Shown: positions 30,060 to 61,750 of the stretch, piece after piece | Layout: each line of letters begins with the position of its first letter | Position numbering within the stretch: the first letter of the stretch is position 1 | NCBI GenBank assembly: GCA_026770705.1 | Contig: JANJGN010000034.1 | Coordinates: 6,200,001-6,264,000, forward strand | Length of the DNA stretch: 64,000 nucleotides | Direction of reading: 5' to 3' | Source of the DNA: Isurus oxyrinchus | Lineage: Eukaryota | Position numbers and translations under genes: made by a program | The notes under the pieces: generated by a model | Databases searched by the model: none | What the model was told of the DNA's origin: nothing | Seen by the model: the letters and a program-made list of their open reading frames with translations, nothing else

Positions 30060-30074
30060 GTAAATTGCAGGAAC

Positions 30075-39020: not shown

Positions 39021-39404
39021 AGTAATTGAGCCTTTCGTGGCACTAGCACAAAGCCCTCCTCAAGGCATCAACACTGTTAAACTCTTTGGCCACCTCCTCC
39101 CAGGTAAAACGAAACTGCCTGGTCTTCCTCCAGTTCCCAGTGTTTGGAATGACATGGTGATATCTATCATATATATTGCATCGTGTATGGAACCACAGGT
39201 GAACTCATTGAATCTGGAGGCTGATTTGCCCATTCGAGAATGCCTCCTCCCTGACTCTGATAGTGAAGTTGTCGATGCTTCGCAACATGCAATAGCTGTG
39301 CAACTTCTCAATTCCAAAAGCGTGGAAATTTGCCGAATGTTAATGCTTCTGCCACCTATGAAGTTTGACATGGCTGTGAAATTGTAGCGAAAGTTTCTAC
39401 GAAA

Positions 39405-40555
39405 GATCCGAAGTGATGTGGAATACTCAGCATTCCTGGCATCATCTGTGGAAAGTGGAACAGGGTTAACGTTTCAAGTCTATATGACTCTTCTTCAGAG
39501 CTGACGAGACGTAGAAATGTAATTGATTTACACTGTCGAAGAGAAGGGATGGAGCAGGTGGAGCAAAGTAATGGATCAGGGATAGGGGCAGCTAGGCGGA
39601 GATTTGGCAAAGTTATAATGGGACAAGAATCAGGGCGTGTTCATGATAGTCTTAAAGACTCAGACATTTGTTAAACGTTGCATGAAGAGGTAGCAGAATG
39701 GGTTATTAGCAGAGCTAGGCTCACCGCTTTCTCAAAGCCAAACATAAGAACAGGTTACAGAGTGACCTTGTGGATGGAGTGAGATTGGGAAAATATCAAC
39801 ATGGACGCGAGAGTTAATTACCTGAATTTGTTGAACTCATTATTAAGTGCAGAAGCCTGTGAATTGCCAAATCAAATGATGACGTGTTGTTCCTCTCGTT
39901 TGTTCTGGGGAACAGGAAGAACAACACCTCATCTTCTGAATGGGTATTTTACAGCCTTCTGCACTTAACATTGATCTCAACAACTTCAGGTCGTGAACTC
40001 TGCCCTCCATGTTGATACTTTCGCCCCAGATTCCCACCCCACCCCCCACACTCCAGCGGCTCCCGCTCCACAACCACCGCACACCGGCCCCCACAACCCC
40101 ACACAACATCACCACACCCCACCCCACCCCACCTAGCAACCAAGGCCAGTCGGTAACTCATTCTTACGTGTCAGAATCTTGCATAACAAAGGAGCCAAGA
40201 TCCTTGTTCTGCCAAAAACAAGTTCCCCTGTCTGACCTCTATGTCACTCTCAGAACCTTCCTTAGTCTGTATCCTTATCATTACCATGCCCTTTATCTTG
40301 TATCCTGAGATCGCTGTCAAATCTCTCCTGAGCTTCCACGTATTCCTGACCTTCTACTTTGCTCCACCTGTTTCTCAACCTTTTTTCAACAATATAAAAC
40401 CCATGCCAATATTACCTCTATTCTGCTCTGATCAAGCGCAAAAAAATTCGAAACGTTAACTGTGTCCAATCACAGATGCCGCCAGCACAGCTGAGATTTT
40501 TTCCAGCATTTTATGTCTTTATTTAAGATTTCCAGCATCCATAGTCTTTTGCATT
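39405..40555. mobile_element. Large inverted-repeat Penelope-like element
   Basis: Both arms encode the GIY-YIG C-terminus: EEQHLIF*MGILQPSALNIDLNNF (+, from 39910) and EEQHVII*FGNSQASALNNEFNKF (-); hammerhead core ctgaagaagagtc...gacttgaaacgtt on the minus strand near 39465-39500. Confidence 0.8.
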
Positions 40556-40789
40556 TATTTGAGCTAAAATGTAAATAGATTTGCCTGAGCAGACGGATCG
40601 ATGCACAATTCTTCACTATGCATAATAACTGCACTCAAGTGATCATCCAATGTGTCAATTGACTCTGCCAAGTATGGCACGGGGTGGGAGAGGGAGCTTT
40701 AAAATGCTGCCATTTGCGTTGTTCCAGCTGCCTGCAGCCTCCAAGACTGAACACCTGACACTCCAGAGCTTCTTAGGCAGAAAGAATCT

Positions 40790-42705
40790 ATATAAGCCAA
40801 ATTTGTCGCTATTTCACAGCAGACTTTATTATTGGGCGTGCACGCGTGGCGAACCCGGAAGCTGTAAAAGCCGTCAACTTTCGGGTGCAGGATCCGTCTT
40901 CAGAGACCCACTGTATTATCCATCCCCTCGAACGGAATTTTACATTCCTAGGGTTTTACATTCACATCGAAGTCCACTAACTTTTGAAAAGCTTGCAGCA
41001 TTTTCCAACCCTGCCCCCGCTTCGATAGGGCTGTATAAATCCGTCCCAAAATGTCATATTTTATTGGCTACAGGACTGCTCATATGATTGAGGAGCGCGG
41101 CGTTTTGGGACATTGTTTCATTAACAGGACTCTCCTGTGAATAAGACTGATTTTATGGTTGATCATCTTCCATTCCTTTAAACAGGGCTGTGAAGTCTCT
41201 GAGATGGGAGGACGTTACGGACTCAGTTGCAGATATAACATCTACAGAAGACGAGAGAGAATTATGTGGACGGGAAGGGTGTCAAGAAAAAGAGGACACA
41301 GTGCGTCCCAGTTTGCTGCAGTTTTGCAGGAAGACAACAGGGTAGCGCCAGACCCAGGCGAAGGGGGGAAACGTAGATTTGCACAATGGAGGCGCAGAAG
41401 ATTCTCTGCTGCCCAAAGAGTTCAAAGGCACGGATTTAGCTCTGCTGGAGAAGGCGTGGGATTTCAAGTGCCACTGTAACCTCACCTTATGACGTCCTCG
41501 CAAATGAGATCTAATCCATCAGGGTTAAAGCCCAGCAGATGCCTGTCCCATTGAAGGTCACATTGAAACTGAACGCCTTCTCAGCAGGCTCAGTTACAGA
41601 ACCTCTGTAGATCTAAGTGGGATAGCGCAGCATGCTGCGCACCATTTCTGAAAGGCATTAACAGATGCAATGTTGTGGAGAGCAGGGAATGACTTCCCAA
41701 TCAAGCAGTTTATTCAGAGTCAAATGGATGGAGCCTCAGTTTAGTTTAGTGTCATGTTTCACACCATGAACGTCCAAACCAGCAGTGTATAACCAGACCA
41801 TTTCTTGAAATTCACAATTACATGTTCTAGGTGAGGTCTGTTCCTGTGGAAACATGATGCATTTGCTGTGCAGCAAACTTAAGTTATCTCCTGCATTCGC
41901 TAGCGTGACCTTTAGCACACGAGGCTGGGAATGATTTTACAGATACCAACGCACCCTGGCCGAAATCATGACGTCAATCAGCTTTGTGTTGCACTGCGAC
42001 CAACTGCTTCTCGCCACAACCACACTGGTGACTTCTTCAGTGTGTTCCTCCTATCTAGTTTGAATCCAGTTGCTTGTCTCCTTTTGCCTGCAGTTGACAT
42101 GACCTGGTCACGTTGCTCAGAAACTGCAGTCTGTGGGGCACCCACCGCGGCTTCACTTTATCTGGGGGCTGGTTTGGTCCTTCTGGAACACCTCTCCGCT
42201 TGCTGCATTGGAAAAGAGCGATATGGAAAATGGTAGAAAAAGTATAATTCCTCAGTGCCAAATGTTGGGGAAAATGCCGTATTTTAGTCAAATTTCTTCC
42301 ATTGTTAGTATTGACATGATTTACAAAGATTAGGAAAATGTAAATACACTTCACGGGCCAGAAAGGAAAATGCATAATTTTTCTCTCAGCTTTGTAAATC
42401 CAGGATATTGATCTGATGGAACACCTGACACAGTTTGGTGCCTGGAAGACCTTGTTTTTGCTGCTTCAGATCTTATTACGGTCATGGCCTGCAGCCATTC
42501 AGAGTGGCCTTTCGGCTCTCCATCACTTATTTGGCGGAGTGGGGGTCGATAACACGCCCCCACCATTAATTTACGGCAAAAATCATATAATCGTTCGAGC
42601 GTTTCTGCCAGCCCACATGTTCAAACGCCGCAAACTTCCGAGTGTGAACCTGCTGTCGGCTCCCGAACTTATCCACGGTTTCGGTGGACCTTCAATTCTG
42701 CCTTA
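40790..42705 (+). mobile_element. Internally deleted two-gene Harbinger element
   Basis: + transposase MPVPLKVTLKLNAFSAGS..DLSGIAQHAAH..LTDAMLWRAG..HDAF; convergent minus-strand Myb/SANT-like EEVTSVVVARSSWSQCNTKLIDVMISAR (41955-42050). Confidence 0.7.
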
Positions 42706-42754
42706 CTCCAAGTCTCCCATTCTCATGCTTCCACCATCAGATTTTTATTTTCTT

Positions 42755-43080
42755 CTTATTCTTTCATGGGATGTAGGCATCCTTGGCTCGGCCAGAAATT
42801 TTTACCCATGCCTAATAGCCCTTGAGTAGGAAGCCACCTTTTTGAACAGCTGTAGTCCATTGGTGCAACTGCATCCAGAATGTTTTAGGGAGTACCTTCC
42901 ACCTTATTGACCCAGCCACGGTGAAGGAAGAGCGATATTGTTCGAACTCAGGATGATTTTTGATTTGGAGAGGTACTTGCAGGTGACGCTGTTTGTGGGT
43001 GCCTGCTGTCCTTATTCATCTGGTTGGTTTTGGACATGGGTTTGGAAGATGCTGTCAAAGGGACATTTGTTATATGCTGC
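42755..43080 (-). mobile_element. LINE-B 3' end
   Basis: Reverse complement of the LINE-B tail (ttcatgggatgtaggcatc...cccttgag). Confidence 0.65.
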
Positions 43081-43091
43081 ACTACGTAAGA

Positions 43092-43570
43092 CCATAAGAT
43101 CATCAGACATAGGAGGAGAAATTAGATTATTCGGTGCACCAATTCTGTTCCGCCATTCAATCATGGCTGATAAGTTTCACATCTCCATTCTCCCACCGTC
43201 TTCCCATAACTTTGATCCACTTATCAATCCAGAACTTATTTATCTTGGTCTTAAATGCATTCAATATCCTGGCCTCCACAACCAGCTGTGGTAATCACAA
43301 CTCTATGGCATAAGATGTTCCTCCTAATCTCTTTTCTAAATTGTCTTGCCTTTACTGTGAGGCTGTGCACTCGAGACCTAGTCTCTCCTGCTAAGTGAAA
43401 CATCTTCCCCACGTCCACTCTATCCAGGCATTTCATTATTCTGTATGTTTCAATCAGATCTCCCTCTTCCTTCTAAATTCCATCGAGTATAGACCCTGAG
43501 TCCTCAAACGTTTCTCATTTGTTTAGCCTATCATTCCTGGGCTCATTTTCGTGACCCTCTCCAGGGTCAT
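43092..43570 (-). mobile_element. CR1/HER1-like 3' fragment
   Basis: LDRVDVGKMFHLAGETRSRVHSLTVKARQFRKEIRRN. Confidence 0.85.
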
Positions 43571-43884
43571 CCTAAAGATGATCAGCGCTCCTGCCAATAT
43601 GTGTCAATGCTGGGGCAAGTGGATTGTGAAGGTGGTGACTGGGCCCTCATTATTTCCAATATCTCCTGTTTAAATCGCTCGTGCTGACCAAACCCACAGA
43701 CAGATTCTGAGAAAGCCAATCCTAATAACACGGTGCGCCATATTCAAAATGTATTTGATGATCTCGGTGTGATGAGCCTTACATTGTTTTGCCACTTCAA
43801 TGTTGCGATTCAAAAACGAATCGTTGATATTTGCATTAATTCCTGCCGCTCCGCCACCCGCCCCCAACCCCTTTTAACTTACAG

Positions 43885-43911
43885 ATGAGGAATCACGGGA
43901 AAAAGATTCAG
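43885..43911 (+). CDS. Micro-exon E2 (27 nt): DEESREKDS
   Basis: cttttaacttacag|ATGAGGAATCACGGGAAAAAGATTCAG|gtaagt. Confidence 0.85.
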
Positions 43912-44029
43912 GTAAGTTTAGGTAATCATAGCAACTGACTTACTCAATGTGAGTTCTGCCTCCTTTAATCGTCTCACTTCATTTGAGGGACAGAGATTTA
44001 TTTTATTACATGGGGTGGGATCCATGAAT

Positions 44030-44370
44030 TGAGCATGTTACAAACTGACTGATTGGCATCAGAGTGCTTTTGAAGTGCAGTCACTGTTTAAGTGTGGGAG
44101 GGTTGTCACGCAAGTATGCACTTCAATGTCCCTTGAAAGTCAATGAGTTTACAATATTTCCCGTGATGTAAATTCTGAGGGCTAGGCTTCGTATCCATAG
44201 AAATTAATGTAGTTGTGACTTTGGCCTAGTGAACCTTTTGAAAGATGGAATTTCTGACAGACTCTAATTCCTTCAGTATGGAACGATGTTTCGTCATCAA
44301 TATTGATGTTGAATCGAGGGAGTGGGATTTGAGCCTATGGACTTCCCATTCTGAGGCTACATAATGTGCA
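44030..44370 (-). mobile_element. Deu-domain SINE
   Basis: cttttgaagtgcagtcactgt, gaaagatggaatttctgacag and ggagtgggatttgagcc motifs. Confidence 0.5.
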
Positions 44371-45333
44371 GTGATTAGCATGGATGTAATTTAATGTTCC
44401 CTCCTTATGGATGTGGAGGATGGGGTGGTGTGTAGTGCTATATAATCAGATGGAAGAGTGCATCTGGTGATCCACTGCCTTCCCATTTACCCCCGCCCCA
44501 CACACTACATCAATTTCTGGGAGGGAAAGAGGGAGGGAGGGCTTCCCACGAGAAGTCCTATTGAGGTCATTATGTAGTCAGCTAAAACCATTTAATGTTC
44601 CCACGCTGCCACAGCATGTTTTCATCCAGCAGTGGGTAGGCAAATAGCCATTCTGCAAAGATGCCCAGAAACCTCCATTGGGTTTACCTGTGACTTAAAG
44701 GGAGTGTGGCAATCCTTTGATTTCAGGAAATCAGATCGAGAGAATCGGCACTGGAAGTGGAGGTGGTGGTGATTGTTAGCGGGGTGGTCGGACGGGAGGC
44801 GGAAGGTGCTGCGTTGCAAACTTCATACACGTTGTCAGTATTGGCTACCCCTATCTCATTGAGACTTACCCTTCCTGCAGGATTCCTACGGGGATCCCTG
44901 GTGAGGGCGCATACTGGCAATGCCAAGCCTGCCAGTGCTGGTGCTGATGGCACTGGAGGGCTGCCTGTGTCGGATTGGTTAACACAACTCAGGAAGGATG
45001 GGGGAAATGGGCGCTACTTCCATTTGCTTATGGTTTAATATAAATGTAGGCCTGGAAATGCCTAGTTAAGTTTTGTATTATTTTTGAAATAGTGCAGCTC
45101 ATCTGGAAAAGATTGACACAGGAATCCCACTGTTATTCCAGGGGGTGGGTGGACAACACTTCACATAATTAACTCTTCCTAATGAAAATGTCTACAGACA
45201 TCAGTCGCCAATGTATTCACTGTGCCTTCTTAAAATTTGCAACATTGGTATATTAAAGCAGGAATAAGGTAATGCATCTACAATTCCAGCTGAGATACAA
45301 ACAATCGATTTTTATTTCATTTATTCATCACAG

Positions 45334-45369
45334 AAATAACCGCTTTGAATAAAAACCTACAAGACGCAG
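45334..45369 (+). CDS. Micro-exon F2 (36 nt): EITALNKNLQDA
   Basis: catttattcatcacag|AAATAACCGCTTTGAATAAAAACCTACAAGACGCAG|gtgaga. Confidence 0.87.
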
Positions 45370-47424
45370 GTGAGAACAATAATTAAGTAATAAAATCGAA
45401 GAGCATTGGTAATTTGACCCAACCCTTAATCTACCTTTCTGTGCGAGCACAGGAGAACTGTCATCAAACTCTCTTTGCCTGCTCTGCAGCCGAGCCGTTG
45501 TCAAAATAAATTCCAAAACATAGACACCTCTGCATGCTGAATTGCTTCCTAACTTCAATTTGAAAAATGTCCAACACTGTTATTTACCCAACACTCCTTC
45601 TCCTACGCTCACCAACCAGGGAAACTTATTTGTGCCTATCTACTCCTTCAGCTTTCCGAACATTTTGGAAACTTTGATCAAATCAAACTTCAACTTATTA
45701 ATTTGCAGAAGATATAATAACAGTTCCTCTAAACTATTCTATTACTTTGGAGTCCTGCTATAATTCTGCTCACTGTACTTTGAACTCCCTCCCAATACAG
45801 CAGGCCATTATGAAAGTGCTATTTTCAGAACTGGCCAGATCAATCAAAGTTTGCTGTAACTGAAACTTTTATATTTCGGGCATGATGTTCAGCTCCTTAT
45901 TCGCTTGCCACTCAGATAGCAGGACAAAAATATTTCATTTGTCTCGTTGATAATTTTCCACAACTACTGGTGACTTTTCAATGATCTATGTGTATGCGCC
46001 AATATGGCAACTGGGATTCCAGATTTTTTAAGTTGTTAACCAGTTGAAACGTACCGTAAATGATACATTTTTCATCGGAAGTGGGTTACCTCACGCTTAT
46101 GCACTGAAAACTCTTTGATAATATATTCCTATTTACTATATGTATCAACATCTATTTCTGATCTCATGTCTCCATCCATGTTGCTTATTTTACTTGCAAA
46201 CTGCGTGTCAGCAGCAAAATTGCCCTTCTGTCTACGCATTATGCCGTGTAAGATGCTTGTGATTGCATGAATCGTCACGCTTTGCCAATTTTAACATCGC
46301 TGTTCTTTTTAACATTCAACCCGTTTTATAGCCCAGCCAATGGATCGTCCTAAATACCATGAGTTTAAGTTGTAGCTAAAAATCACAAATGTGACACTTC
46401 ATCACACAACTTCAGGATATAAATGGAAGCAATGTCAATTGTCAATAGCTCGGATCTTCACAGTAGCAGCAGCGGTAGTTGGATTTCCTCTGCACTCGAA
46501 AACTCCCCCGACATGACACTGTTGCATTAACAGAAATTCCCAGTCCAAAGTCCCCACTCCCACAGAGCCCAGTAGAGTCGGGCAAAGATCGGACACAGCT
46601 GACTGTGGTAATTTTAAAGGTCTGGTCTTGGATTGTTAGTGGATAAGGGAATGGACGTCTGGGTGAATGGGTTAATGGCCGAGTGAGTTAAAGTGTTGAG
46701 TTTCCTTACACAAACTGACCAATCAACATACAGGTTTGGTAAGCTGCAAGAAGGTTTCATTTATTGGAAGGCTGCAACTATGGAATGTTGTGATGTTAAT
46801 TTTCTTTACATATCCAAATGATGTACACATGCAATCTAGAGACCGTCATAGAAAGCCACACGCGACCAGCAATCTTTTAATGCAAACTCAAAGCAGCTGA
46901 TATTGTGACTAATACTGGTTGTTAAATGCTGGATAGCTCACCAAACAACCCTATTATATGGATTCTGCAAGCGCCATTATTCCCAGTGGAATTAAAAACT
47001 TCCACACAGCCTGCTGGTTACATGCTGCTTTATTGTCCTTGGAATACATGTGTGCATCATTTGTATTTGTTTAAAATATTATTCACAACTGCTTCTTAAT
47101 GGATTATGAAGCAAACATTAAGAGTAAATAAATATATACAGGTCGTTTGCTAAAACATATTACACAATTGATTTTTCTCTGTTTACCATTTGAGATTGTA
47201 AGCGTCCTTACAATATAAATATGGTTTAATGACTGTCCTGGATCTCCTAACGGTACAACCTTCCTCAAATCAAGATGGATCATACCAAAGTTCTTGACTC
47301 ATGGGAACATTGACATTGTGTGTATTAGCAGAGTGCTGATTGTCTCGCATGCTTCCACTTTGCGGGTTCATCCTTGGTTATTTTCAAGATGTAATTGGAG
47401 TGTTGGGTATTATATATTTGGGTA

Positions 47425-49360
47425 ATAATTTGTGCTGACTGGTAAGGGTGATAGAATACCTTATCGAGATGGAGTGTGACATAGTTGATTCTGAGGCTTG
47501 CGTGCTCAATCTTAATAAAGGAAACTACATTGTTATGAGGCACGAGTTGCTTATGATGGATTGGGAAACGTTACTTATAGGGATGAGGGTGGAAAGGCAA
47601 TGGCAAGCATTCAAAGAGTGCAGGGGTGAATTGCAACAAGTGTCTATTCCTGCCTGGTGCCAAAGTAAAACAGGAAAGTTGGCCAAACCATGGACTATCA
47701 GGGAAATTAGAGGTAGTACTAGATGCAAGGGAGAGGTACACAAATTGGCCAACTAAATACAACAGGCCAGAGGATTGGGAGCAGTTAAGAATTCAGCAAA
47801 GGAAGGCTAAGGTGTTAATTCAGAAGGGGGAAATAGTTTACCAGAATAAACTCGCAGGGAGCATTATAACTGAATGTAAGCATTTCCATTGGTAGGTTTA
47901 GAGAAGAAATTTGGAGAAGTCTAATATCATTACAGTCAGAAACAGGGGAATTTATCACATATATACAAAGAAATGGCTGACCAAAAAAATACATACTTTG
48001 GTACTGTCTACACAAAGAAGGACACTAATAACGTTGCAGAAACGTTGGGGGAAACAGAGTTTAGTGAAAGAGAGGAACTGAAAGAAATCATTATTGGTAA
48101 CAAAATGGTGTTGGGGAAATTAATGGGACTGAATGCCTGTAAATTCCCAAGGCCTGATAATAGTGCACTTAGGGAAGTGGCCCTAGAAATAGTGAATGCA
48201 TTGATGGTCATCCTCTGAGATTCTATATACTCTGGAATAGTTCCTACAGATTGGAGCATAGCTAATGTAACAACACTATTTAAAAAGGGAGGCAGAGAGA
48301 AAACAGGGAATTATAGACCGGTCAGCCTGACGTGGGAAAAAATCTAGAGTCCATTAAAAAAGATTGAATTGTTGAGCACGTGGTAAACAATGGCACAATC
48401 GGACAGAGTCATCGCGGATTTGTGAAAAGGAAATCATGCTTGACAAATCTACTGGACCTTTTCTGTGAGGAAGATGCAGAGATGTTTCTGTATAATTTGG
48501 ACAGCTGAGTGCATAGGCAACTGTATGGCAGTTGCAGTTTAATGTAGATAAGAGAGAGATTATCCATTTTGCCACCAAAAACAGGAAGGCAGATTATTAT
48601 CTGAATGGCTATGATTTGAGACAGGGGAATGTGCAACGATACGTGGTTGTCCTTGTCAACCACTCGCTGAAGGTAAGCATGCAGGTGCAGCAAGTGGTAA
48701 AGAAGGCAAGTGGTATTTTTTCCTGCATTGCCAGAGGATTCGAATACAGGAACAAGGATTTCTTGCTGCAATTCTACAGGGCCATGCTGAGGTGATACCT
48801 GGAATATTGTGAGCAGTTTTGATCTCCTTAATGCTGAGGAAGGATGTATTTGCTACGGAGAGAGTGCAGCGAGGGTTTATCAGTTTGATGCCTGGGATGG
48901 CGGGACTGACATATGAGGGGTGAGTGAGTCGATTGGGATTATATTCGCTGGAGTTCAGATGAATGAGAGGGCATTTCATAGAAACCTATGAAATGCTGAC
49001 ATATCTAGACAGGGTAGATGCAGGAAGAATGTTCATGATGATGGGGGAGTCCAGAACGAAGGGTCACAGTATCAGGATATGGGGTAAACCATTTAAGACT
49101 GAGATGAGGAGAAATTTCATCACCCAGTCAGTGGTGAGCCTGTGGAATTCGTTACCACAGAAAGTAGTTTTGACCAAAATATTGTATGTTTTCAAAAAGG
49201 GGTTAGATATAGCTCTTCTGGCAAAAGGGAGCAAAGGGTAAGGGGAGAAGTCTGGCGCACTCTATTGAGTTGGATGATCAGCCATGATCAGAATTAACCA
49301 CGGAGCAGGCTCAAAGGGCCGAATGGCAGACTCCTGCTCCTATTTTCAATGTTTTGTTGT
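47425..49360 (+). mobile_element. CR1/HER1-like LINE, 5'-truncated, with the RT core deleted
   Basis: DWSIANVTTLFKKGGREKTGNYRPVSLT, GFVKRKSCLTNLL, QFNVDK, IARGFEYRNK, LDRVDAGRMF; 3' tail gatcagccatgatc...ctcctgctcctat. Confidence 0.92.
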
Positions 49361-49499
49361 ATCTACACCGCATGTCCTTCAGAGATTAGGAAGGCAACTC
49401 ACTACCACCTTCTCAAAGGCAATTAGGGTTTGACAATAAATGCTGGCCTACCCAGCGATGCCCATATCCCTGAAATGAATATTAATAAGGAATTTTTCC

Positions 49500-51300
49500 G
49501 CCTAGCGATGGAGACATGTGTTTTACACCTTGGAGCTTGCCTCTGTCAACCAGGCCTCTCTTGCTGTTGAATCTGTGTACATCGAGGTAAAGCTGCCATC
49601 GTTCTTGACCACACATTTTGTCCATATTCTACTTCGATTTTGCCAATTACCACAAAATCATCGTCCTTTGATTGGCATCCCGTAACATTTTCTACCCATT
49701 TCTTCACATGCAGCTGGAAGATATCCTAAGTATGGATAAGAAAAAAATAAGTTTGGAAGCAGCATTTTCGGAATGGTTTCCTGAAAGCAAATATTTATTG
49801 GTGCCCCTCGTCCAGATGAACTAACGAATGCCTGATTTTGATGCTCACCTTGGATAACATTCTGTGCTTCAAATTTGGAATTCAATTCCTATAAGACCAG
49901 CTCCTCAAAACAAGGTTTAGACGTCTTGGGGGCAAGCATATCCAGATTTGCCATCCTATTGACAGAGATTCCCCCGTCGGTGTGCTGACTCGACAGCTGA
50001 AACAATTACATTCTCTTTCATTCAAGTTCCTGTGTTCCTTCTCCTTTGAGTGCAAAGTGCATTTTCAAAGATGGTCAATCGACAGGAAAGCCTCTTTCCT
50101 GACTTGTGTTACAGAATCACTTCTGACTTTCCCTATAGTTTCAAACCTGCCTAGGTATAATTTTGTACCTAATGAAGTGAACCAGTATCAATGTCCTGCG
50201 TACATTTTGAATTGGTGATCTCGTTCATTATCACAGCATTTGTTTCCATGGACGCCATTTATCCTACTACAGCAACTCTGCCCCTGTCCACCAAGAGATT
50301 ACTTGTGGCTCGCCTGCGGACTCACTTAACTGTGTTTCACTCCTAATGTCCCAAAGCAATGAAAGGTCTGTGTCATTATCCGTAATTAGTTTGGCTTTCT
50401 TGTTAGCTTTCTAGATGAAGGTATCTACAAAGTTCATCTTCACCCTGGCCACTAAGTTGGTGATTCGGTGTTTCCTTATGTAAATCTCTCACACACTCCA
50501 TCGTTCTTCTTTCAGAATGCTGGAAATAATTTTTGCTTGCTTTCATTTTATTGCGAACTCTGGTCAGGACTGAGCAACCATATTTCCTGCATTTGCGAGC
50601 CCAGTGGCTGATTCCAGCAAAACCCTTGGGAAGAGTTTGGAAGGCAGGATGCAAGTGGGTACAGAAGTCTAAGCTTCTTACATGGGTTGCTTGCATTCTG
50701 CTTCTTTGCTGCTGCACCAACAGTGCATCGAATGCTTGCACGTGTCGTTCACCACCCAAAAAGGCATCATATTCTCTGCTGTTATTTAGCACTTTAACAT
50801 GTTTGTATTCTTTCATTTTCTCACAATGCTCTTTCTGGGGGAGTCCAAATCGCGTTGACCCTATAACTAGCTCTGATATGTGTTTACACAACTCAAATTA
50901 CTAAAAGGTAAAATTCTTGCCCTTACCCTAGTAAGTGGGAAGCTGATCAATCGATTACTGCAGCTGTTGTCTTTAAACTCTCAACTCTCATCTGTGTATT
51001 CCAAAATTCATTTTTACATGAAGCTGGTCCTCCAGCACGTAAGCAGTTTCATAGGGTTTTTCTGGTCCTCCGCAAGCAAGACCAAAATGTTAACAATTTG
51101 CAACCTCTCATTACAAACAGTTATCCTTATTTAATTTCCTTTACTTCTTTATATTTATCGGGTTACGTGCTGGATAAACAAAAAAAAAAGCATTACTCCA
51201 ACGCTTGCTTAATTAGCCCAAATTCAACTGCACTCATGTGGCCTCCCCAAGCATCCTGGAATATCTCGTCACCATCTTCCTGATTTTGTCTGTACTTTAC
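49500..51300 (-). mobile_element. Gypsy-like LTR retrotransposon gag-protease remnant
   Basis: Minus strand VKMNFGIHR*EL..RQQ..SIDQ...ISELVIGST, zinc-knuckle remnant GISHWARKCRK, protease-like DIDTGS; many stops. Confidence 0.6.
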
Positions 51301-52738
51301 AGGTGGTCACGCCTCATAGGCAATTTCTGACCTCTCTAATTCACCGAGGGTTCAGAAATGCAGCGACTGTTGTAATCTTTACTCCTCCCTCATTGTTGGC
51401 TGCAGTTCAGGCTCTTGCAATTCATTTTCAAATGATGCCTTTTTCCTGCTCTTTGTGTTTTTTTTTTACCTCTGCATGCGAATGGCAGCCAAGAATATTT
51501 CAATGGTCTTCCAGCTTTTCTGCTCGATTGAAAGCCATGCACATCATGACTCTGAACAAACTTGTCACTTCCTTTCATTGCCAATCCTGCTCTCCCACAA
51601 ATTTGTAAAACACTCTCTGAAAAGGGACTCTGCTTTCTGAGAATCCAGGAACAAAGGGTATATAGCGCCAAATACTATCTGTGCTAGAGGATACCTAACC
51701 AACTACTCTAGTCTATAGACTCAGCAAACTTCATTACTCACAGCAACAGCAAGATCTGCAACTCAGGTGCACTGATAGAATTATGGTCACGAACGGTTTT
51801 AAATCATGTTACCCCTATGCCACATACACGTTATTTGCATATTCTCCTAAAGAGATATCACAACAGTCTGCATGTGAGTCAGTCGGTAATTAGGTGCTTG
51901 CGTAGTTGTTTGGTGGAGAGGTGAATGCTTGAGTAGTTGGGTGGAGAGGTGAGCAAGGTGGTTCTGTTGTTAAATGGGTAGGGGGATGGTGCAGACAAGT
52001 GGGTTGGTGACTACGGTGGGTTGGATGATTAGAATTTAGAATGCGTAGGTGTGTAGAGGCAGTAGTTATGTGGGATGGGTAATCTAATTAGGTTAGGAAT
52101 TTGGACAGTGGTTAGGCAGGAGGAGAGATAAGACAAGTGTATGCGTAGGAGCGTGGGGTGACCAAGTCCCAGTTTCGTCTTCTCTTACTTTTTTCAACTG
52201 CATTCGGTGTAGGTTAAGAGTGAATGTTTCCTGACATGTATCTTGCAACATCCTCTTAACTCATTTCATCATATTCTCTATCCGAATCTTCACCCAAGCA
52301 GGCCCATAAATTTCTACTCTTCATTGGAATGTACCTTAGCCTGTCCATTGAGCATTGCCTTCTGTAACAAGACCAGTTTGCCTATCCTTTTATTTTTTGC
52401 TTGCGGCTAATTCTCTAATTCACCGTGGCGAGGTCCCTTTCATCCCATTGTTGTGAGACTTTCATTTTCTAGGTTAGATTGTCTTTTAATACATAAGCAG
52501 TATTATATAAGAAAATCTAACTGAAATGGTGAGGTAAGCAGATTTAATAGAACATATTAAAAGGTAACTGGATAAATAATTGAATCATTCGAAAATGGAG
52601 AAAGAACAGGTAAGAGGGAATAGTGCAAAAATGCAGCATTGAAGTGAAAAGAAATATTCCTTAATCTTTTGTGGCAAGATCCCATTAATTGATTTCCTTC
52701 TCTTCCATTAACATATCCACTTAATCCATTTCTAACAG

Positions 52739-52765
52739 AAGAAAAACTAAGACAGAAACAGAAAG
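52739..52765 (+). CDS. Micro-exon G2 (27 nt): EEKLRQKQK
   Basis: ccatttctaacag|AAGAAAAACTAAGACAGAAACAGAAAG|gtaagg. Confidence 0.87.
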
Positions 52766-54236
52766 GTAAGGAGTCACATTGTAATGATTTGCGGGCTGTT
52801 AATTTATCGGAATTCCAATTTAGCCACTATCATATTCCCTCTAAAACACTTGGTCTAAGTGTCGATAAGTTGGTTTGAATATATTTGCTCTCCGAGATTT
52901 TACAGATTGCTGCATTCTTGTGTGTCTATCTTATCTGCATTGTGTTTTTTTCATGTGCTTCTGATATGTGATTGAAAGTTATGTTAGTGCGATTGTTTGA
53001 ACAGAAAGGAGTCTCTGTAAACATTGGGATGGTGAAATGGGATGAATTGCCATTCCTCTATGCTGCAAATTATTTCTAATGCTACGATTCCAGCAGATCA
53101 TAAATAGACTCGCCCATTGAAGATTTGCGCGTGCTTTACAGCCTGTTGGAATTTTATCTATTCATTTTGTTCAAAGCAAGACGTTAGAAGTTTTTCCTTC
53201 CGCCTTTATAGTCCACCTTTAAAGTCATGTTCATGGAATTCCATGGACTATCAAAAGCAGTGTTGGAAATAAACCAATTGCAAGTAAGTATATCCTGCTA
53301 ATTCAAAATAAAATATTAACAACAGAGATATTCCCGAGAATGTATTGAGCAATTTGCCAAACGTTAGCCTTCTTTGAGATTCATATGGTTAAATACCTAA
53401 ATATATCCTCGGAAAACCATAAATGTCGTGCCTAAACTAAGAGTATAAAAGCAAGGCGATTTTTCTTCTGGAACTTGCAACTCCATTAGGTGAAGGGTAT
53501 GATCAACAAGAAATGGTAAAAGGAGATTTACGATTTCATGCAGTAGATAATTTTAACCTTTAGCGAAGTTTCGATAGGCAGGGGTTGCAGGGGAACAGGT
53601 TTAATTGAGATGTATAAATCAGTGAGGGATGTGGACACAGTGGATGGTGCTCTGTCTCTTTCCACACAGGAATTTGAGTTGCTCCGTCAAAATGTACTTT
53701 TACTCGCATTCTATCGTCTGGAACTGTGGATGATTATAGCAGAAGTTCCAGCTTTCCTTGCTTTGCACTGCTGACCCTGGGCCCGGCTCGCATTGCGTGG
53801 CATTGGCGTGTTTTGGAAAGATTCGGAGTTTTATGCTCAACCTGTTTGGTCGTGTTGTGCATGCACCTTCCTTGTGCATTGAGTTTTGAGGCACGACTCA
53901 AAAATGCAATTGCAATTGCAGATGTCGGTTCACTAACCTATGCACCATGTGACAAAGTGGAGAGGTTGAACGTGTTTCCAGTGGCATGAATACCAATTGC
54001 ATCGCAAGTTCAGTATAGATGCTTAGCAGATTGATAATAAGATATTGCAAGCTTTTTCTTTCATCCAGATTGTGGTTGGAGCTGGTAAACAGGACCTCTA
54101 GGCGGGGCAAGAGCAGGACAACTCTCACAGTCAAAAATGTATAATTTAGGTTTTCATAGAAAAAAAACACGTTTTTTAATGAGTTGCACAGCAAGTACCT
54201 CCGCCAAGTTAACATTATTGAATAACTACTTTTTAG

Positions 54237-54272
54237 AAATAGAAAACCTGAAAGGATCTTTTGCTCAATGTG
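54237..54272 (+). CDS. Micro-exon H2 (36 nt): EIENLKGSFAQC
   Basis: actactttttag|AAATAGAAAACCTGAAAGGATCTTTTGCTCAATGTG|gtaaga. Confidence 0.85.
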
Positions 54273-54599
54273 GTAAGAACAAGATATTTGGTTTACATCT
54301 CATTGTTACTAGTTGAAGTTAACTGTGCTGAAAGTGTCAACACACACAAAAATACATGTTTTTTTTTTTTCTTCTGTGTTAAAATCTAAAGCAAGGAACT
54401 GCAAATGCTGATAGTAAAGCTATTCAGTTGGATTTTTTTTTGAGATTTTGGGAGGAAGGCATTCGGCCAAACAATGTTTCCAATGTGCATCTCGCTTTCA
54501 ACAAGGGGCAATAGAAATGAAAAGCATATCTACATTTTTCGCATAAGATGCACACAAGGGGGAAAAAAAAGCACAGGAAATTGTTTATACATCTTAGGA

Positions 54600-55005
54600 T
54601 GTAGCAGAAGTGGCTTGATCGTAGCTTTTTTGATCCTGAGCAGTCATGAACTAGCGGATGTGCAGACTATGTTTCCTCTTGTGGGAGAGCCAAGAACTAA
54701 GACTCGTTGATTTAAATTATAAGGTCGCTCAATTTAGACAGAGAAGAATGTTTTTTTTTCCCCAGAGAGTCGTGAGTATTTGCAACTCTGTTCCTCAAAA
54801 GGCAGTGGAAGCAGAGTCCTTGAATATTTCCAATGCAAAGCTAGAAATTATCTTGATTACAAGGGGGTGAAGGTTTATCGGAAGTTGGCAGCAAAGTGGA
54901 GCTGACGTCACAATCAGATCGTCCATGATCGTAATGAATGACGGAGAAGGCTGGAACGGCCAAGTAGCCTTCCCCTGCTCTAATTTGTACATTCATATGT
55001 TCCTA
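54600..55005 (+). mobile_element. CR1/HER1-like 3' fragment
   Basis: DVQTMFPLVGEPRTK..FFPQRVVSICNSVPQKAVEAESLN plus CR1 tail. Confidence 0.8.
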
Positions 55006-56249
55006 TACTGTATCGTGATATGATAAACGGAATAGCACCTAGTGTCATCTGGGTCAAGAATCCCAAAGGTAAACACTTTTCTGAGGAATTCTCCTCTTCG
55101 CCTCAACAACATCCAGCTCATCTCAGTTATATACCTGCCGGGCCTTATTCAGAGACTGAGGGATCTACTTTTAGACCCCGTGACCCAAGAAATTATCATA
55201 ACAGCATTTTTCTTTCAGATCCAATTAAGAATTATACATTGCTCACTAAGTTCAGCCCTAATGCTTCTAAAATACAGGAACATAGACACTGTCTACAGAA
55301 ATATTTAGGAATATTCATTTATCCCATGATTCATTCGGATAAACTTTCATTGCAAACCCTCCAATGTAAGTAAGTTATTGGTTGCATAGGGAAAACGTGA
55401 AGATTAGTCCATGTGTGGTTACAACAACAAGGAGTCAGTTTGTCTCAGTAATAATTCTGAAACTTTGCACATCATTATTATAAAATTAATTCTGAAGCAC
55501 AATTTGATATTCCAATTGCATGCATGGTAAAATTGTGTGAAGCATCTACAGTGCCATACAGGTGCCTGTAAATTCTCTGAATTTTCTGGTTTTCCATTTG
55601 CCCATTCAACGGGAATAGCCCTTTTGTCAATGTCCGCAAATGTCTACATTGCTATAATCTTCTCATTGCAATTTTATTACTTCTGTATTATATACTGTAT
55701 AATAGTTGTGATGTCCAGGTCAAATAGGAATAGATAACGTAGGCTCCAATGTAGTGGTTTCCATGCCAGAATTAATAATTAACTATAATGTTATTGCCGT
55801 CAGTCATCCTCATGAAGCTCACATCTAAGTGAGATAGACCACTAGCGTCCATTTAGCTTCATATGGTGTTTTTTTTTTCCCTGGAGGAAAAGGTCCATCC
55901 GTGAGTTGCCATTTCTGTCAGAAGTGCCAGATAAGAAGTGATCCTGTGCGGCTGTTTACCCTGCTGCTGGGAAAGAGTAGATTCTGATTGTCATGGGCGT
56001 TGCACTGTGAGAGAGAGGTGATGTCATTACCCTGCTTCACCTCCGAGGAATGAAAATAAATGTTTAGGACCGTGGTTTCATGCTGTCAAACATCCTTGGC
56101 CTTATGCCTCTGGCTAAATCGCCACGCAGAAAATCCTACATACCAGATCCTGAAAGAGGGCACGGACCAGCGAAGTCAACAAGATAAGTGCAATTATGCC
56201 ACCAATTTTAGAGTGTCAAAAGGCCCCAAATGCGTTACAGCCAAAGAGA

Positions 56250-56760
56250 GAGGAACAGAAAATGCTGGAAAAATTCACCAGAGGTGACAGCATCTGTGGA
56301 GAGAGCAATAGAGTTGACATTTCAATCAACATGACTCTTCCACAGGGCAGTAGAAATGTTGTGAAATGTTTTCTGTTTAAAGGCTGTGGAGTTGGATAGA
56401 AAACCAGCTACAGGTCCGAGAAAAGGAGAGATTGACAAAGACGTCATGAATGAAACCCAAATATACTGGTAGTGGTATAGGATAAAACAGGTGCTGATAG
56501 TGGCATTAAAGTAAGAAAGCAGAATGTCATAATGACAAGTCAAGAGTAAACACTCTGAAAAGAACAACATGAACAACTAACAGGGATGTCTTGTAGGTGT
56601 GGCGTGGTGGGAGTGCCGTGCTGATAGGGGGTGGGAAAGAGATCGAAAAAATGATAAAATGGAGGACTAAAAAGGGCGATATAACAATGCATAGATGAAT
56701 GAAAATGAAAATGAATAAAAAATAATTCGTTAATAAATAAAAATTAATCTTGAAAAATTA
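56250..56760 (-). mobile_element. Penelope-like 3' terminus, single arm
   Basis: aacagaaaatgctggaaaaattcacc...gcatctgtggagagag...gttgacatttc, homologous to 39405-39750. Confidence 0.6.
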
Positions 56761-57113
56761 TTTTTTTAAAAATGGGTGTTGTTGATATTGTTGTTGATGA
56801 GGTTTACATTCACTTATTGGAAAAAACAAAAAACTTTGCAATCTTCAGAAGATCAAATCAATTTCCGAATGTTTAGTTCCAGCATGAATTATAATCAATT
56901 TGAATAATATTCATATAGAGGAGATGATCAATTATGTTATTTTTATCTTTACTATCTCTATTATTTGGCGGCTATTATTATGTAATAATCATCCCTTAAC
57001 GAATATTTGAGCTTTCAGTAAATGTGTTTCTTGCAGTAACATAATATTATTCATGACAGTGAAATTATTATTGGTATCTTTTTTACTGATATGCCATTCT
57101 CATTTATTAATAG

Positions 57114-57140
57114 AGACAAATCTCAAGGAGAAATCGAAAG
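57114..57140 (+). CDS. Micro-exon I2 (27 nt): ETNLKEKSK
   Basis: ctcatttattaatag|AGACAAATCTCAAGGAGAAATCGAAAG|gtattg. Confidence 0.8.
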
Positions 57141-57253
57141 GTATTGGCAGCAGCATGTCACAACTTTAAGTAGGACGAACATTTTAGTGGTGGACTCCGC
57201 CATGTCAAAGCTTAAAACGATTTTATGATCTTCTGTGTGTTCCCTTGTTGCAG

Positions 57254-57288
57254 AAGAATCTGATAGGGGGTCCGAACTGACACCTTGA
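57254..57288 (+). CDS. Coding part of terminal exon: EESDRGSELTP*
   Basis: tgtgttcccttgttgcag| after a 113-nt intron; in-frame TGA at 57286-57288; poly(A) signals about 410 nt downstream. Confidence 0.68.
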
Positions 57289-57698
57289 GAAAGTACAATT
57301 CAAGCTGTAGTTGTTACTTGAATGACCTTTTGTATTTATGTCAATTTTCGTCTTTATCTGGGCCCGTCAGACGTTGTGAAGTTGCAGTAAATGAACTTCG
57401 CCAGGAGATATTTAATACTATATCAGGTCACCCCAGATATTTTGCAATATGTTCGTTAATTATTAATCCCTTACCATGATACTTCACAATTGAATTTCGG
57501 AACCGTCAGGTATCGTGGAAATGTTGTGGACATTTATTTCTGTCTTTGCACTGTTCAAGTTTGGGATAAATCAGGCTTTCATTTGCTGGGATTTAAATGT
57601 CCATCTGTGACCATCTATAAGAAATCGTTCTACAATTTTGCATGACATATGTGTGACCACACCTAGAATTCTGTATGCAGTATTCATCTTCATATATA

Positions 57699-57712
57699 AA
57701 TAAATGAATAAA
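57699..57712 (+). terminator. Tandem AATAAA polyadenylation signals (putative 3' end of the gene)
   Basis: aataaatgaataaa: hexamers at 57699-57704 and 57707-57712. Confidence 0.5.
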
Positions 57713-59609
57713 GGCAGATTAACTACATTGGCTCCTGGGATGACCGCATTCTAATATCATGGAAATCTCAGAAAATTGTGCCTGTGCTGTCTGGCCAATC
57801 ACTTAATTCTGAGATGAGGATTTGTGCCTTCAGTCACAAGGTTGTGAATCTGTGGAGTTTTATTTCATCAAGATTTAGGGGAGTCCAAATACTGATTAAA
57901 GTTAAAAGGGATGGAATGAATTTTGATCACTGAAGGACTAAGGGGTACGGGGAGGAGATTGAGAAATGGAGTTTAGGCTTGATGGCAATGAATGCCTTCG
58001 CAGCCCCATCCTGCTCCGAATCCATATGCTAGAAAATGTGCTTGGCATTGTCTCTATGTAAACACCTTGTATGTAAAATGAACTGTGAGTGAGTTACATT
58101 CTGGACCTCTGCAATCTCTGTTCACATGGACAGCCATTTGGAGTTATGTATTGCTGTTAAGATAGCCTCAGACCAAGAAAATTTGCACTTACCGATATAT
58201 GAGGATAGATATGACGAAAATGGCAAGTTGATCCATCAAGGTCGTCAAACACTGAGAATGGTTGAACAATTATAAGTAGACATGCCCTTGGCAGCTCCCT
58301 CCCTCATGTCATATATTGGCATCGATAGATAGTCTGAACATAAAGCACGGAATATTAGTGGGAATCATTTTTCTGATTCTCTTAAAAATCAGAAACATTC
58401 CAGGAAGTCAACCTTTACGTGTGTTAGCCAAAAGGAAACTTGCTGTATTAGTATGTATTGAAAATGCTACTTGACAAGTTCGCTCTGCATTTACAGTCTA
58501 ACATCTGTACTTGTCTCCCAACGATTTTGGCAACTGGTGTATTTAGAGATCTGTGTAGCCGGTCTAAACATCTCACAAACACAATAACTCACATAGCTTG
58601 GGTGAGAAAACACGCACCCTTCAGTAAAAACCTATGCAGTTATATTGATCGTTTCCTATGCCTGAATCCTCTTCAACACTCCAACACACATTTTCGAGAT
58701 CTGTTGTGCTGCGATTTAATTGTCGCCAACTTTAACCATTCGAAGATTGTCTGCTGTGCCTTCAGTCCTCTACACTATCACCTCAATAATTCTGTCCCTA
58801 ATTCCCACATTCTCTCGCTCCCACGAAGAAGATTGTTAAGTCAAGGTTTCGATTGCAAGCTCTAATATGTGATTTATGTTTATTATTATGAGCTGTTGCT
58901 ACTCACTCGGTGCGATAAAATTGAATATATTATGGGATTATGTGGCCTCGCAAAACATCATTTCGCTCCACAATAATTGCTTCCCAACATTTTTCCTCCC
59001 CAGAAATAGAAACATTGAAAGGTCAACTGTCAGATGCAGGTGAGTGCAACAGTTGGCATTCATGTTTTGTTCTTCCTGTCAAGCCCCATGCATCAGCCCA
59101 CCGTTATTTTTCTACCTCCCACATGCGACAACCACTCCTCGCCACCCTTCCCCTACCTACTGTTAAATGTAACATCTACATTGAGGCATAAGGAGGAAAT
59201 ATTACTCTACTTACTGACTTTAGAACTGCAGCAAAATGTCCATGTTGGAAATCTCAAGGAAAGCAGACAATTCCTGCAAACACTTGGCAGATTATGTTTT
59301 TTTTTCATGGGTCGGGGGGAGTGAAAGAAATGTTTTGTTCGGTCAAGACTAGAAGAGGTTAGAGATTAAGTATTTTATAAGTAAGGACAGCGGCAGAGAA
59401 AATGCGGAAGGGAGAAAGAAGGGTTAAAATGGTTTGTAAAAGGGTGAAGGACAAATCTGATTTATGGATAAGGGATTATAGAATGAGGCAAAATGCAACG
59501 GTAATAAGATTCGTGATAGATAGACGAAATAGGTGTTAAGAAACTCGCCGCTCATTATACTCACCCATTATATTTGGTGGCAACAATTCAAGTAGCAAAA
59601 ATAATTCAG

Positions 59610-59960
59610 TTTATACAGCCCCCTTCAGGACCTTGGGTCCGCTCACTGTTTTCGACAGCCAGTGAGGCTCTTTTGTAGGTGTAGCCATGGTTGTGATCAT
59701 AAACATGTAACAAATTAATTTCACACAACATGCTCCCCCTAAGGATGTTTCACAATGAACAGCTCATTTGAGTTACAAAGATGCTGGTTGAGGGACAGAG
59801 GATCCCCGTTGACATTTCCACACTCTCTCTCTTTGCGAGAGCATTATGGGGCTTTAATTCAATTTGTCTTGCCATTGGTTTAAGGTCGGGTCAGTCAGCA
59901 GTATGGTTCCCTCTAAGCACGGGGACTATATACGGCTCCTCAAGTCCCTGGAGAGAAGCA
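59610..59960 (-). mobile_element. Deu-domain SINE
   Basis: acagccagtgaggctcttttgtaggtgtag...gatgctggttgagggac. Confidence 0.5.
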
Positions 59961-60319
59961 TGATCCCATAGAATCCTTGTTACAAAATCAGCTTTTACAA
60001 TTGTTCTACTCATGCTGAGCATGAAGCAGAAAGTCTGAGCACCAGAAAAAATCGGAACACCAGGGCTGAAGAACTAAGATAATTGGCTGCTTTGAAAACA
60101 CATCAGACTTTATGTCTGTGGAACGATTACAACTTATTTCAGCCACCAAGTTAACACAATTGCAAATTTCCCAATTTGCACGTTATGAAAGATTGAACCA
60201 TCAAAAACCATAAAATTGTGTCAGGTTTATGTTCCAGTTTGTAATGTTCGTACAACAGGTTGAAACGCTTTGTTTGCTCAATAACATGCGTTGTTCTTTA
60301 TTATAGTCTCAGCCTTGCT

Positions 60320-60680
60320 TAAGTTGGCAAAACTGTCACACCTGAATCAAAACGTCTTAGCGTCAAATCCTACTTAGAACCCTGGAATCATGAAAGGGGC
60401 TGAAACTTTATTGACGATATGAAGTACTGCTGCACTCCAGGAGAGTGCTGTCATTTGGGTGAAACAAGAAACAGGATCTTAGGTAACCTTCTTAGCGTAT
60501 ATGGAAAAGGTCTCGAGGTTGTATTTCAACTAAGTGCAAGGGTTCTTCGCAGTACCAAATAATTTTCTCAAATACTTTAACTAAAATAAATTAAGAAAAA
60601 GCAGCGTAACTGGCAGTTATCTCTTTGCTTATTGTTGGAGCTGTCAGCACAGAAACCTGCACCTGTAAACTCGCTGGCCA
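60320..60680 (+). mobile_element. Deu-domain SINE
   Basis: tRNA-like head (cacctgaatcaaaacg..caaatcc) and tgctgcactccaggagagtgctgtcatttgggtga. Confidence 0.5.
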
Positions 60681-61750
60681 AAGGTTCTGGGTCCGTCTAA
60701 AGCAACCGAAATTGTTACATGGTTGCACCCTATCATATTTTCTGGCATTTATTTTGCTTATTCCCCCGTTCTTTTCCATTAGGAAAGGCTTTAAAGGTTA
60801 AAGAAGCTGGTAAGTGTGTACATACGTTTCTTGCCTTTGGGAAGGTGTCATTATAGCGTACATTTTCTGAATGACATCAGGGCAATTAGCTATGCCTGAT
60901 CTGGTGGCGTATCGCTTATATGACTGGAATAATAGAATTTACACGTTGGGAGACAGTCAGTTTCAACGGATAAAAGACGATGCAGTACTGTCAGAAAAAT
61001 GGAAGTAAAGACTGACAGGAAAAACTGTAATGAAAAGTCACTGATCTCTAAGAAGGAAATCATTCAGTTATAGATTAGCTTCATAATTACATAGAGATTA
61101 TGGTGAAAATAATTTTAAAATTTAATACATGTCAAATTCGCTCTTAAACAAATAAAGTTTGCCAAATAAGTTAATTTCAGAGACGAAGTGTGGAAGAAAT
61201 AAAAGCTGTAAAAGTAAGAATCTGAGATTATAATGAAATTTAAAAGGGAAGAAAACCCCACAAAAAAAGTACTGGTCTGTAAATACTAAGCAGTTTGTAA
61301 CTGCTGGTGTGAGGCAAAGAGGGTGGCACATGCTTCAAAGAGCATGGCAAGGCTAAGGTATTTAATAGGCAACTTGTAGAGGGTCATATGAAGGATAAGA
61401 ATGTTGACAAATTATTGCTTTAATTCGATGTTTTTAGGGTAATGTATAGGGCGTTAATTGATAGGCAGGGTGTGCTCTGATGTCTGATGATATATAGAGT
61501 AATTTCGTCGTCCACTCTCGATGACTTGCTTTGCAGGTTGCTAATGGAAAGCGAGGTGAAAAGAGCGGAAGCTATTCCATTTTCACAATGTTGCCAATAA
61601 ACTGGAGAGCTGCAACAGAATTGCACATTCAAAGACTGTGGTAGAATGTGTTTGAGAGTAATCCTATAGACTGCAAGCTGAGGAATTGAACATAGGTTTT
61701 GAGAAAGGTCTTAGAAACAAAGTTCCGAACAAATAAACACGCAATTGTAG

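Follow-up and report, generated by a model that had tools for sequence, protein, structure and literature searches.

Paired 36- and 27-nucleotide exons encode three heptads of a predicted coiled-coil rod in a very large, apparently undescribed gene of cartilaginous fishes

How can a coiled coil keep its seven-residue rhythm when the exons that encode it are cut to lengths that are not multiples of seven codons? This question is raised by a stretch of 64,000 nucleotides from Isurus oxyrinchus, referred to as the window in the following (contig JANJGN010000034.1, here C34; C34:6,200,001-6,264,000 in a genome of 4.98 Gb), for which an initial annotation had described alternating exons of 27 and 36 nucleotides at positions 43885-57140. 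These five exons, of 27, 36, 27, 36 and 27 nucleotides, do alternate as described, all have AG/GT ends and all are in phase 1-1. We assign them to gene A, a gene of cartilaginous fishes that is very large, apparently undescribed and encodes a coiled-coil rod with a terminal SPRY domain, and we are highly confident that both the gene and the rod are real. Gene A is one of five paralogs on contig C34, and its exon series extends far past the window:

C34:4,848,606 (presumed end of a non-coding first exon) to C34:6,395,819-6,396,339 (B30.2 exon), + strand: gene A; the whole window (1..64000) lies inside it.

The heptad register runs through the exon junctions, as had been claimed. The string of residues assigned to the core positions a and d of the initially annotated exons, ILLALKILFCLK, was recovered exactly, and nine of its 12 residues are strongly hydrophobic, whereas the other six frames reach 0-6 of 12. 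The five exons open an uninterrupted run of 39 exons, in which 19 consecutive 36+27 modules encode 399 residues, three heptads each. Within these modules, hydrophobic residues occupy 53 of 57 a positions and 31 of 57 d positions, against 2-6 of 57 at the other positions; of the three d positions per module, one holds Lys in 13 of 19 cases and another Cys in 9 of 19. A pair of 36 and 27 nucleotides is therefore exactly three heptads long, and the register is unbroken across the pairs.

This arrangement can be followed over a larger catalogue of 99 exons at C34:6.106-6.381 Mb, in which two exon types are distinguished by the location of their core residues. Type A exons are hydrophobic at residues 1, 4 and 8 and, when 36 nucleotides long, also at residue 11; they supply the core positions a-d-a-d in the 36-nucleotide form and a-d-a in the 27-nucleotide form. 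Type B exons of 27 nucleotides, which are hydrophobic at residue 3 in 95% of cases and mostly have Lys at residue 6, supply a-d (usually Leu, then Lys), while those of 15 nucleotides are hydrophobic at residue 2 and supply d only. Among 81 calls made with an exon profile, type A (36 or 27 nucleotides) is followed by type B (27 or 15 nucleotides), and B by A, at 72 of 80 neighbouring positions over 275 kb, before any filling of gaps. In each of the eight gaps a candidate of the missing type was found, as were five more A+B pairs. The proposed two-exon module thus stands insofar as the exon types pair throughout, but it is not fixed at 27+36 nucleotides: 31 of the 49 modules have 21 residues, 10 have 18 and eight have 17, so that not every pair is a multiple of seven. 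Exact 27/36 neighbours make up 64 of 98 in the catalogue and are unbroken only within the 39-exon run. In coiled-coil terms, the 18- and 17-residue pairs would act as stutters and stammers. As a whole, the 99 exons comprise 979 codons with no stop and a single Pro, their hydrophobicity peaks at a period of 3.502, and exon-order shuffling matched the observed periodicity power in none of 1000 trials. No exon of 21 nucleotides is among the 99. DNA similarity gave no sign that one exon type derives from another, being flat (B5 versus B9 0.40-0.45 at every offset).

Twenty of these exons lie in the window, here in order with the evidence for each; a 27/36 pair occurs in only 11 of their 19 neighbouring positions:

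2859..2885, + strand: type A microexon, 27 nucleotides; exon profile
4348..4374, + strand: type B microexon, 27 nucleotides; exon profile
5077..5112, + strand: type A microexon, 36 nucleotides; exon profile
12405..12419, + strand: type B microexon, 15 nucleotides; exon profile
19601..19636, + strand: type A microexon, 36 nucleotides; exon profile
21102..21128, + strand: type B microexon, 27 nucleotides; exon profile, kept in gene B
22988..23023, + strand: type A microexon, 36 nucleotides; exon profile and gene B comparison
25582..25608, + strand: type B microexon, 27 nucleotides; exon profile and gene B comparison
28496..28522, + strand: type A microexon, 27 nucleotides; exon profile and gene B comparison
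30033..30059, + strand: type B microexon, 27 nucleotides; exon profile and gene B comparison
30949..30984, + strand: type A microexon, 36 nucleotides; exon profile and gene B comparison
36248..36262, + strand: type B microexon, 15 nucleotides, probably exon D2 of the initial annotation; same peptide in gene B
37415..37441, + strand: microexon of 27 nucleotides in a type A slot, weak a/d pattern, probably exon X2 of the initial annotation, possible hinge; same peptide in gene B
43885..43911, + strand: type B microexon, 27 nucleotides, start of the uninterrupted 39-exon 27/36 run that reaches C34:6,365,170; exon profile
45334..45369, + strand: type A microexon, 36 nucleotides; exon profile and gene B comparison
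52739..52765, + strand: type B microexon, 27 nucleotides; exon profile and gene B comparison
54237..54272, + strand: type A microexon, 36 nucleotides; exon profile and gene B comparison
57114..57140, + strand: type B microexon, 27 nucleotides; exon profile and gene B comparison
59004..59039, + strand: type A microexon, 36 nucleotides; exon profile and gene B comparison
60783..60809, + strand: type B microexon, 27 nucleotides, opening one copy of a 40-kb internal duplication; exon profile

The exons D2 and X2, if these labels are rightly assigned, do add up to 14 residues, as had been stated, but the sum is one of pair arithmetic only, because the a/d pattern of X2 is poor and a continuous register is not shown there. 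Together with the next exon they form a series of 15, 27 and 27 nucleotides (36248-43911) with weak core residues that is nevertheless near-identical in gene B, possibly a conserved hinge before the 27/36 run. We dismissed a further 36-nucleotide candidate at 29429, a repeat remnant that lacks a donor, and candidates at 32976, 51853 and 61181 were excluded as they match no exon class.

The exons are under purifying selection. Over 297 kb, the exon profile yielded 81 calls on the + strand and, at an equal cut-off, none on the reverse strand. When gene A is aligned with its paralog gene B, the splice dinucleotides at both exon ends agree in 24 of 25 comparisons (23 distinct gene B exons), the exception being a change from GT to GC, while the identity of the flanking introns leads to an expected retention of about 51%. 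The compared exons have no stops and no indels, and their ratio of non-synonymous to synonymous substitution rates (dN/dS) is 0.60; one further exon could not be aligned. In two internal duplications within gene A, splice sites are kept in 14 of 14 and 10 of 10 cases, with dN/dS values of 0.82 and 0.34, and the B30.2 exon has a dN/dS of 0.45. In four copies of one type A exon (C34:6,108,106; 6,135,624; 6,162,934; 6,021,985), AA stands where an AG acceptor would be expected, and an in-frame AG follows nine nucleotides downstream in every copy; either the site is non-canonical or the exon is shorter by three codons. GC donors are found at C34:6,292,324 and 6,332,972, conserved in both copies of a duplicated type B exon. 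RNA reads from four of five same-species runs, viewed over the last microexon and the B30.2 exon, cover only a repeat and give no evidence either way on expression; for window positions 52000-61000 no RNA match was listed, and no transcript of the gene was observed.

As to gains and losses within the array, self-alignment revealed a duplicated unit of 27.5 kb with 14 exons and 133 residues, that is 19 heptads, and another of 40 kb with 14 exons and 147 residues. In a third event, one copy of the 40-kb unit lacks 5.36 kb that hold exactly four exons, A-B-A-B, with 42 residues; this is probably a deletion in gene A, because the collinear DNA of gene B still contains the first of the four exons. 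All three events thus involve an even number of exons and a whole number of heptads, in line with the earlier expectation that genomic gains and losses should be paired.

At its downstream end, gene A continues with exons of 27, 24, 30, 21 and 27 nucleotides, followed by the long phase-1 exon at C34:6,395,819, which encodes an open domain of 172 residues. This terminal exon is intact; it matches SPRY with an E-value of 1.8e-13, while the PRY model is unmatched. Its best match in the PDB is the B30.2 domain of BTN3A1, with TRIM58 close behind, and the gene A tail aligns with a catshark relative at a score of 91, compared with a shuffled maximum of 52. Paralogous B30.2 exons lie on the same contig at 7.496 Mb (92%), 4.817 Mb (58%), 2.709 Mb (45%) and 3.474 Mb (44%), with two more distant ones on contig C21, and sequence sampled upstream of each of the four C34 paralogs shows the same exons of 27 and 36 nucleotides on the matching strand.

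The named nearest single-domain relatives come from skate, electric ray, catsharks, bamboo and epaulette sharks, basking shark and chimaera. They carry automatic names, and Pfam assigns to them only SPRY or PRY/SPRY. In a quick unrooted tree of 37 rows, 16 B30.2 domains of the family form one clade with a support of 100, apart from IgC-linked and TRIM domains; in an earlier unrooted tree of 19 rows, the family clade was supported at 100/100. Judging by these protein models, the family spans sharks, rays and chimaera, and it was found here only in cartilaginous fishes. The plan of a long coil followed by B30.2 recurs in Callorhinchus milii XP_042192744.1 (1,697 residues), which has six hits to the B|A motif against 0.1 in shuffles; a skate model has three. 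The 21-residue motif alone is not specific, as one non-family protein scored in the family range. The 5' exons of gene A and the chimaera protein show no alignment above shuffles (71 versus a maximum of 85), a single-sequence homolog search for longer proteins retained none of 534 candidates, and an alignment search returned one family member among 52 hits. In the literature searched, whose coverage excludes most subscription journals, we found no paper describing the family, and the matched passages of PMC12841164 do not describe it.

Overall, we find it fairly likely that these data are best explained by a long coiled-coil rod with a B30.2 end, whose paired expansion was filtered by register. 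Unequal crossing-over between like introns would have duplicated blocks of 27-40 kb in tandem and enlarged the array in this way, and the surviving changes would have even exon numbers because the gain or loss of one exon shifts the register by two or five residues and would be selected against. More loosely, the gene may go back to a butyrophilin-like ancestor that lost its immunoglobulin (Ig) and membrane exons. We picture the product as a soluble rod resembling tropomyosin, probably of two strands and a few hundred nanometres in length, which might space or tether B30.2 heads and work like zipper protein; by extrapolation, we estimate roughly 280 exons, 2,500-3,000 residues and a length of about 400 nm if it forms one rod. 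A role as a soluble cytoplasmic scaffold is slightly less probable than not, and we propose it tentatively. If true, gene A would represent an exon-level bookkeeping of coiled-coil register beyond the one-exon-one-heptad rule of the chicken BG genes, in which natural duplications and deletions can be counted.

Several observations weigh against this explanation, some of which favour the rivals considered below. The final 99 exons show no break of alternation in 98 neighbouring positions, but this is in part built into the catalogue: 18 of its exons are manual additions guided by the expected alternation, eight of them sought as the missing type, which is why 72 of 80 is the unbiased figure. 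The balance between 18- and 17-residue modules is not robust; initially, eight of 600 module shuffles reached the observed power, but this rose to 19 with alternative acceptors and to 67 or 29 of 600 after removing duplicates, and we dropped the idea that stutters and stammers cancel each other. The 133 residues of the first event require three 36-nucleotide exons with AA acceptors, and the downstream AG would give 130. Moreover, there are only three events. About 70% of gene A is known from samples rather than from continuous reading. As for ancestry, the score of TRIM58 is near that of BTN3A1, and the family sits on its own long branch, the B30.2 trees favouring neither butyrophilin nor TRIM ancestry.

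The rival that survives best, although we consider it rather less probable than not, concerns the location of the product, which could be secreted or membrane-anchored via a missed short first coding exon; the core Cys residues would then link the chains by disulfides, and the rod or matrix fibre, headed by B30.2, would lie outside the cell. The location of all 33 Cys at core positions and the hydrophobic start of three relatives' models (15-residue Kyte-Doolittle mean 2.15-2.33) indeed suit an extracellular or anchored protein. Furthermore, a 111-nucleotide exon at 4,859,457 in gene A, common to gene C, opens with hydrophobic codons, and the differences between the two genes in it are mostly at third positions. 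This exon, however, contains an in-frame ATG in both genes, and the interval between the first exon and the 111-nucleotide exon yielded no hydrophobic phase-1 exon with an ATG that A and C share; nor did our searches find a signal or membrane first coding exon common to the two. Gene B is without the whole region, yet its splice sites are kept, and four other family models have no hydrophobic start, which intron read-through can create in partial models.

Wider searches of the upstream regions gave a similar picture. No Pfam family was found in 80 open reading frames (at least 75 residues; of 172) that precede the first microexons in genes A and C, where an IgC control was detected, and no Ig, RING or B-box family in 144 open reading frames upstream of gene B. 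Hydrophobicity scans found no membrane exon in genes A, B and C, none of 37 C2-set_3 matches (110 candidates scored) lies at C34:2.7-7.5 Mb, and neither the gene nor the scanned family proteins contain RING or B-box. As searches for Ig, membrane, RING and B-box exons were all negative, the gene falls outside BG, butyrophilins and TRIM by definition. One intron of gene A, located after the first microexons, contains an ATG-initiated, strongly hydrophobic open frame in phase 1, which may be an alternative first exon or a matter of chance.

A second rival, which we regard as unlikely, treats the exons as independent cassettes: the order would be paired merely by the duplication of large blocks, transcripts would skip single exons freely and tolerate register breaks, and the two-exon module would be a by-product. 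A random intron-to-intron segment is even-numbered about 48% of the time, and from segment counts the chance of the three events is about 0.26 x 0.48 x 0.48 = 0.06, so that the even-numbered events support, but do not prove, paired change. For the initial annotation, exons gained and lost singly across isoforms would speak against the module, and here the result went this way: in all four isoform sets of relatives in RefSeq, internal differences are single segments, none of 21 residues (nine residues in Scyliorhinus; nine and six in Narcine, one of these differences lying inside the coil; nine and seven in Callorhinchus; nine in a second Narcine gene). These sets are, however, predicted models of short paralogs, and in two of them the nine residues correspond to the terminal linker exon, which is not part of the coil. 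In addition, an unfilled alternation of 72 of 80 over 275 kb and 19 unbroken 21-residue modules would be hard to keep without selection. We consider paired genomic expansion likely.

The extent of gene A was derived from its two ends. Its 5' part contains a block of 21-nucleotide, one-heptad exons at 5.085-5.11 Mb, of which eight were seen, further 36- and 27-nucleotide exons from 4.869 Mb and, upstream of the 111-nucleotide exon, a conserved donor at 4,848,606, presumably the end of a non-coding first exon. The sequence of this first exon was located only at 4.848 and 6.454 Mb (the gene C copy is too diverged for this search), which gives a length of about 1.55 Mb for gene A and of about 1.04 Mb for gene B. 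In gene B, the first-exon region is joined directly to the 21-nucleotide block (C34:6,453,745-6,455,840), without the 241 kb found in gene A, and its first 21-nucleotide exon has an in-frame ATG. About 460 kb of gene A were read continuously and 118 kb were sampled, and the samples contain 15 exons on the + strand and none on the - strand. Six samples (26 kb) at C34:5.64-5.83 Mb contain no microexon, which indicates a long intron or a break inside the gene. While this gap, the dN/dS of 0.82 in one duplicate pair and the four AA acceptors would also fit several partial genes or a decaying duplication array in place of one gene, such a reading is improbable given the two sites of the first exon, the lack of any family B30.2 exon between 4.817 and 6.396 Mb among the matches listed, the absence of stops in 99 exons, the one-sided strand of the sampled exons and the existence of a single 1,697-residue model in chimaera.

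How does a single rod-encoding gene of this kind compare with known systems? A close parallel in exon structure, aptly drawn by the initial annotation, is that of the chicken BG genes. According to two papers (PMC5938342, PMC4046983), BG tails are encoded by exons of 21, sometimes 18 or 24, nucleotides, with a/d at the fourth and last codons, so that true heptads cross the junctions; BG genes of the B12 haplotype have 13-36 exons of 21 (or 24) nucleotides, and zipper protein, a soluble BG tail, regulates actin-myosin in the gut brush border. Like BG, gene A uses many phase-1 microexons for a long coiled coil with junction-crossing heptads, the exon number varies among paralogs, and codons 4 and 7 of its 27-nucleotide type B exons hold a and d, as is reported for BG exons. 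Unlike BG, which has signal, IgV and membrane exons and a tail without B30.2, gene A has a B30.2 end and no Ig or membrane exon was found in it; its exons, roughly 280 by the above extrapolation, mostly alternate between 36, 27 and 15 nucleotides. The earlier view that it represents a different route to a similar structure is hence fair for most of the gene, but the block of 21-nucleotide exons means that BG-like and two-exon designs coexist in one gene.

With respect to butyrophilins, this genome's own representative on C21 has IgC, a membrane exon, phase-1 exons of 27, 21 and 27 nucleotides and then B30.2. Gene A shares the phase-1 21- and 27-nucleotide exons before a phase-1 B30.2 exon, the best PDB match to BTN3A1 and a Trp-containing nine-residue linker; the last nine-residue segment of a ray relative aligns with BTN3A1 just before B30.2. 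It differs in that no IgV, IgC or membrane exon was found, in a coil of hundreds of heptads rather than a few, and in its B30.2 domain, which is only 23-24% identical to the two local butyrophilin domains aligned and falls in a separate clade. The exon plan favours butyrophilin ancestry. TRIM proteins with PRY/SPRY also have a coiled coil followed by B30.2, and relatives are named 'TRIM39-like', 'TRIM58' or 'A33-like' in databases, but TRIM proteins differ from the family in their RING and B-box and in their coil, for which a small number of larger exons suffices. The gene A product would work like a BG or butyrophilin tail, yet by the tested features it is no member of BG, butyrophilin or TRIM.

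Closer counterparts are the Callorhinchus protein introduced above, named 'nuclear-pore anchor-like', and short RefSeq models from Leucoraja, Narcine, Scyliorhinus, Chiloscyllium, Hemiscyllium and Cetorhinus, which fall in the same B30.2 clade for the rows placed and have a coil with B|A motifs; they differ in covering mostly the 3' end only and are known here as protein models. Long coiled-coil proteins with PRY/SPRY from bony fishes (Megalops XP_036374758.1; ESM Atlas clusters) share the domain plan, but their B30.2 domains fall outside the family clade and the Megalops protein apparently starts with a signal peptide; this design is perhaps convergent. A tetherin/PLVAP-type gene was rejected, as the sole PV-1 match lies on C12 (in a stricter first look) and the B30.2 end excludes it. 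Exons of three heptads have also been ascribed to CD23, and the passages of PMC6791321 consulted do not confirm this.

If our reading is right, these comparisons bear on the evolution of butyrophilin and BG tails in early jawed vertebrates. If the chimaera protein is orthologous, the family would be more than 400 million years old, with megabase genes of hundreds of microexons; a two-exon code would then write the register of a rod of about 400 nm, pairs of 21, 18 and 17 residues would set its local supercoil pitch, and paired splicing might fix the length of a scaffold, cytoskeletal or immune, that carries B30.2 at its tip and goes back to a butyrophilin tail. We offer this extended scenario as speculation and consider it rather less probable than not.

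The large genes of the family occupy about 4.8 Mb of this one contig, and its database models mostly cover only 3' ends. Genes C (+) and D (-) lie head to head at C34:3.97-4.01 Mb, possibly with a regulatory region common to both. Within the window, a 7.4-kb intron contains a long decayed retroelement-like stretch (47400-49350), which we take to be CR1-like, and gene B aligns across the same intron. Between genes A and B there are long terminal repeat retroelement remnants (reverse transcriptase, RNase H and integrase zinc-finger) and a broken remnant with a weak match to the rhodopsin-family seven-transmembrane model (E-values of 8.5e-5 and 0.013). Finally, C21:82-118 Mb contains a very large cluster of B30.2 exons, comprising most of 150 listed matches, many of them near butyrophilin-type IgC exons.

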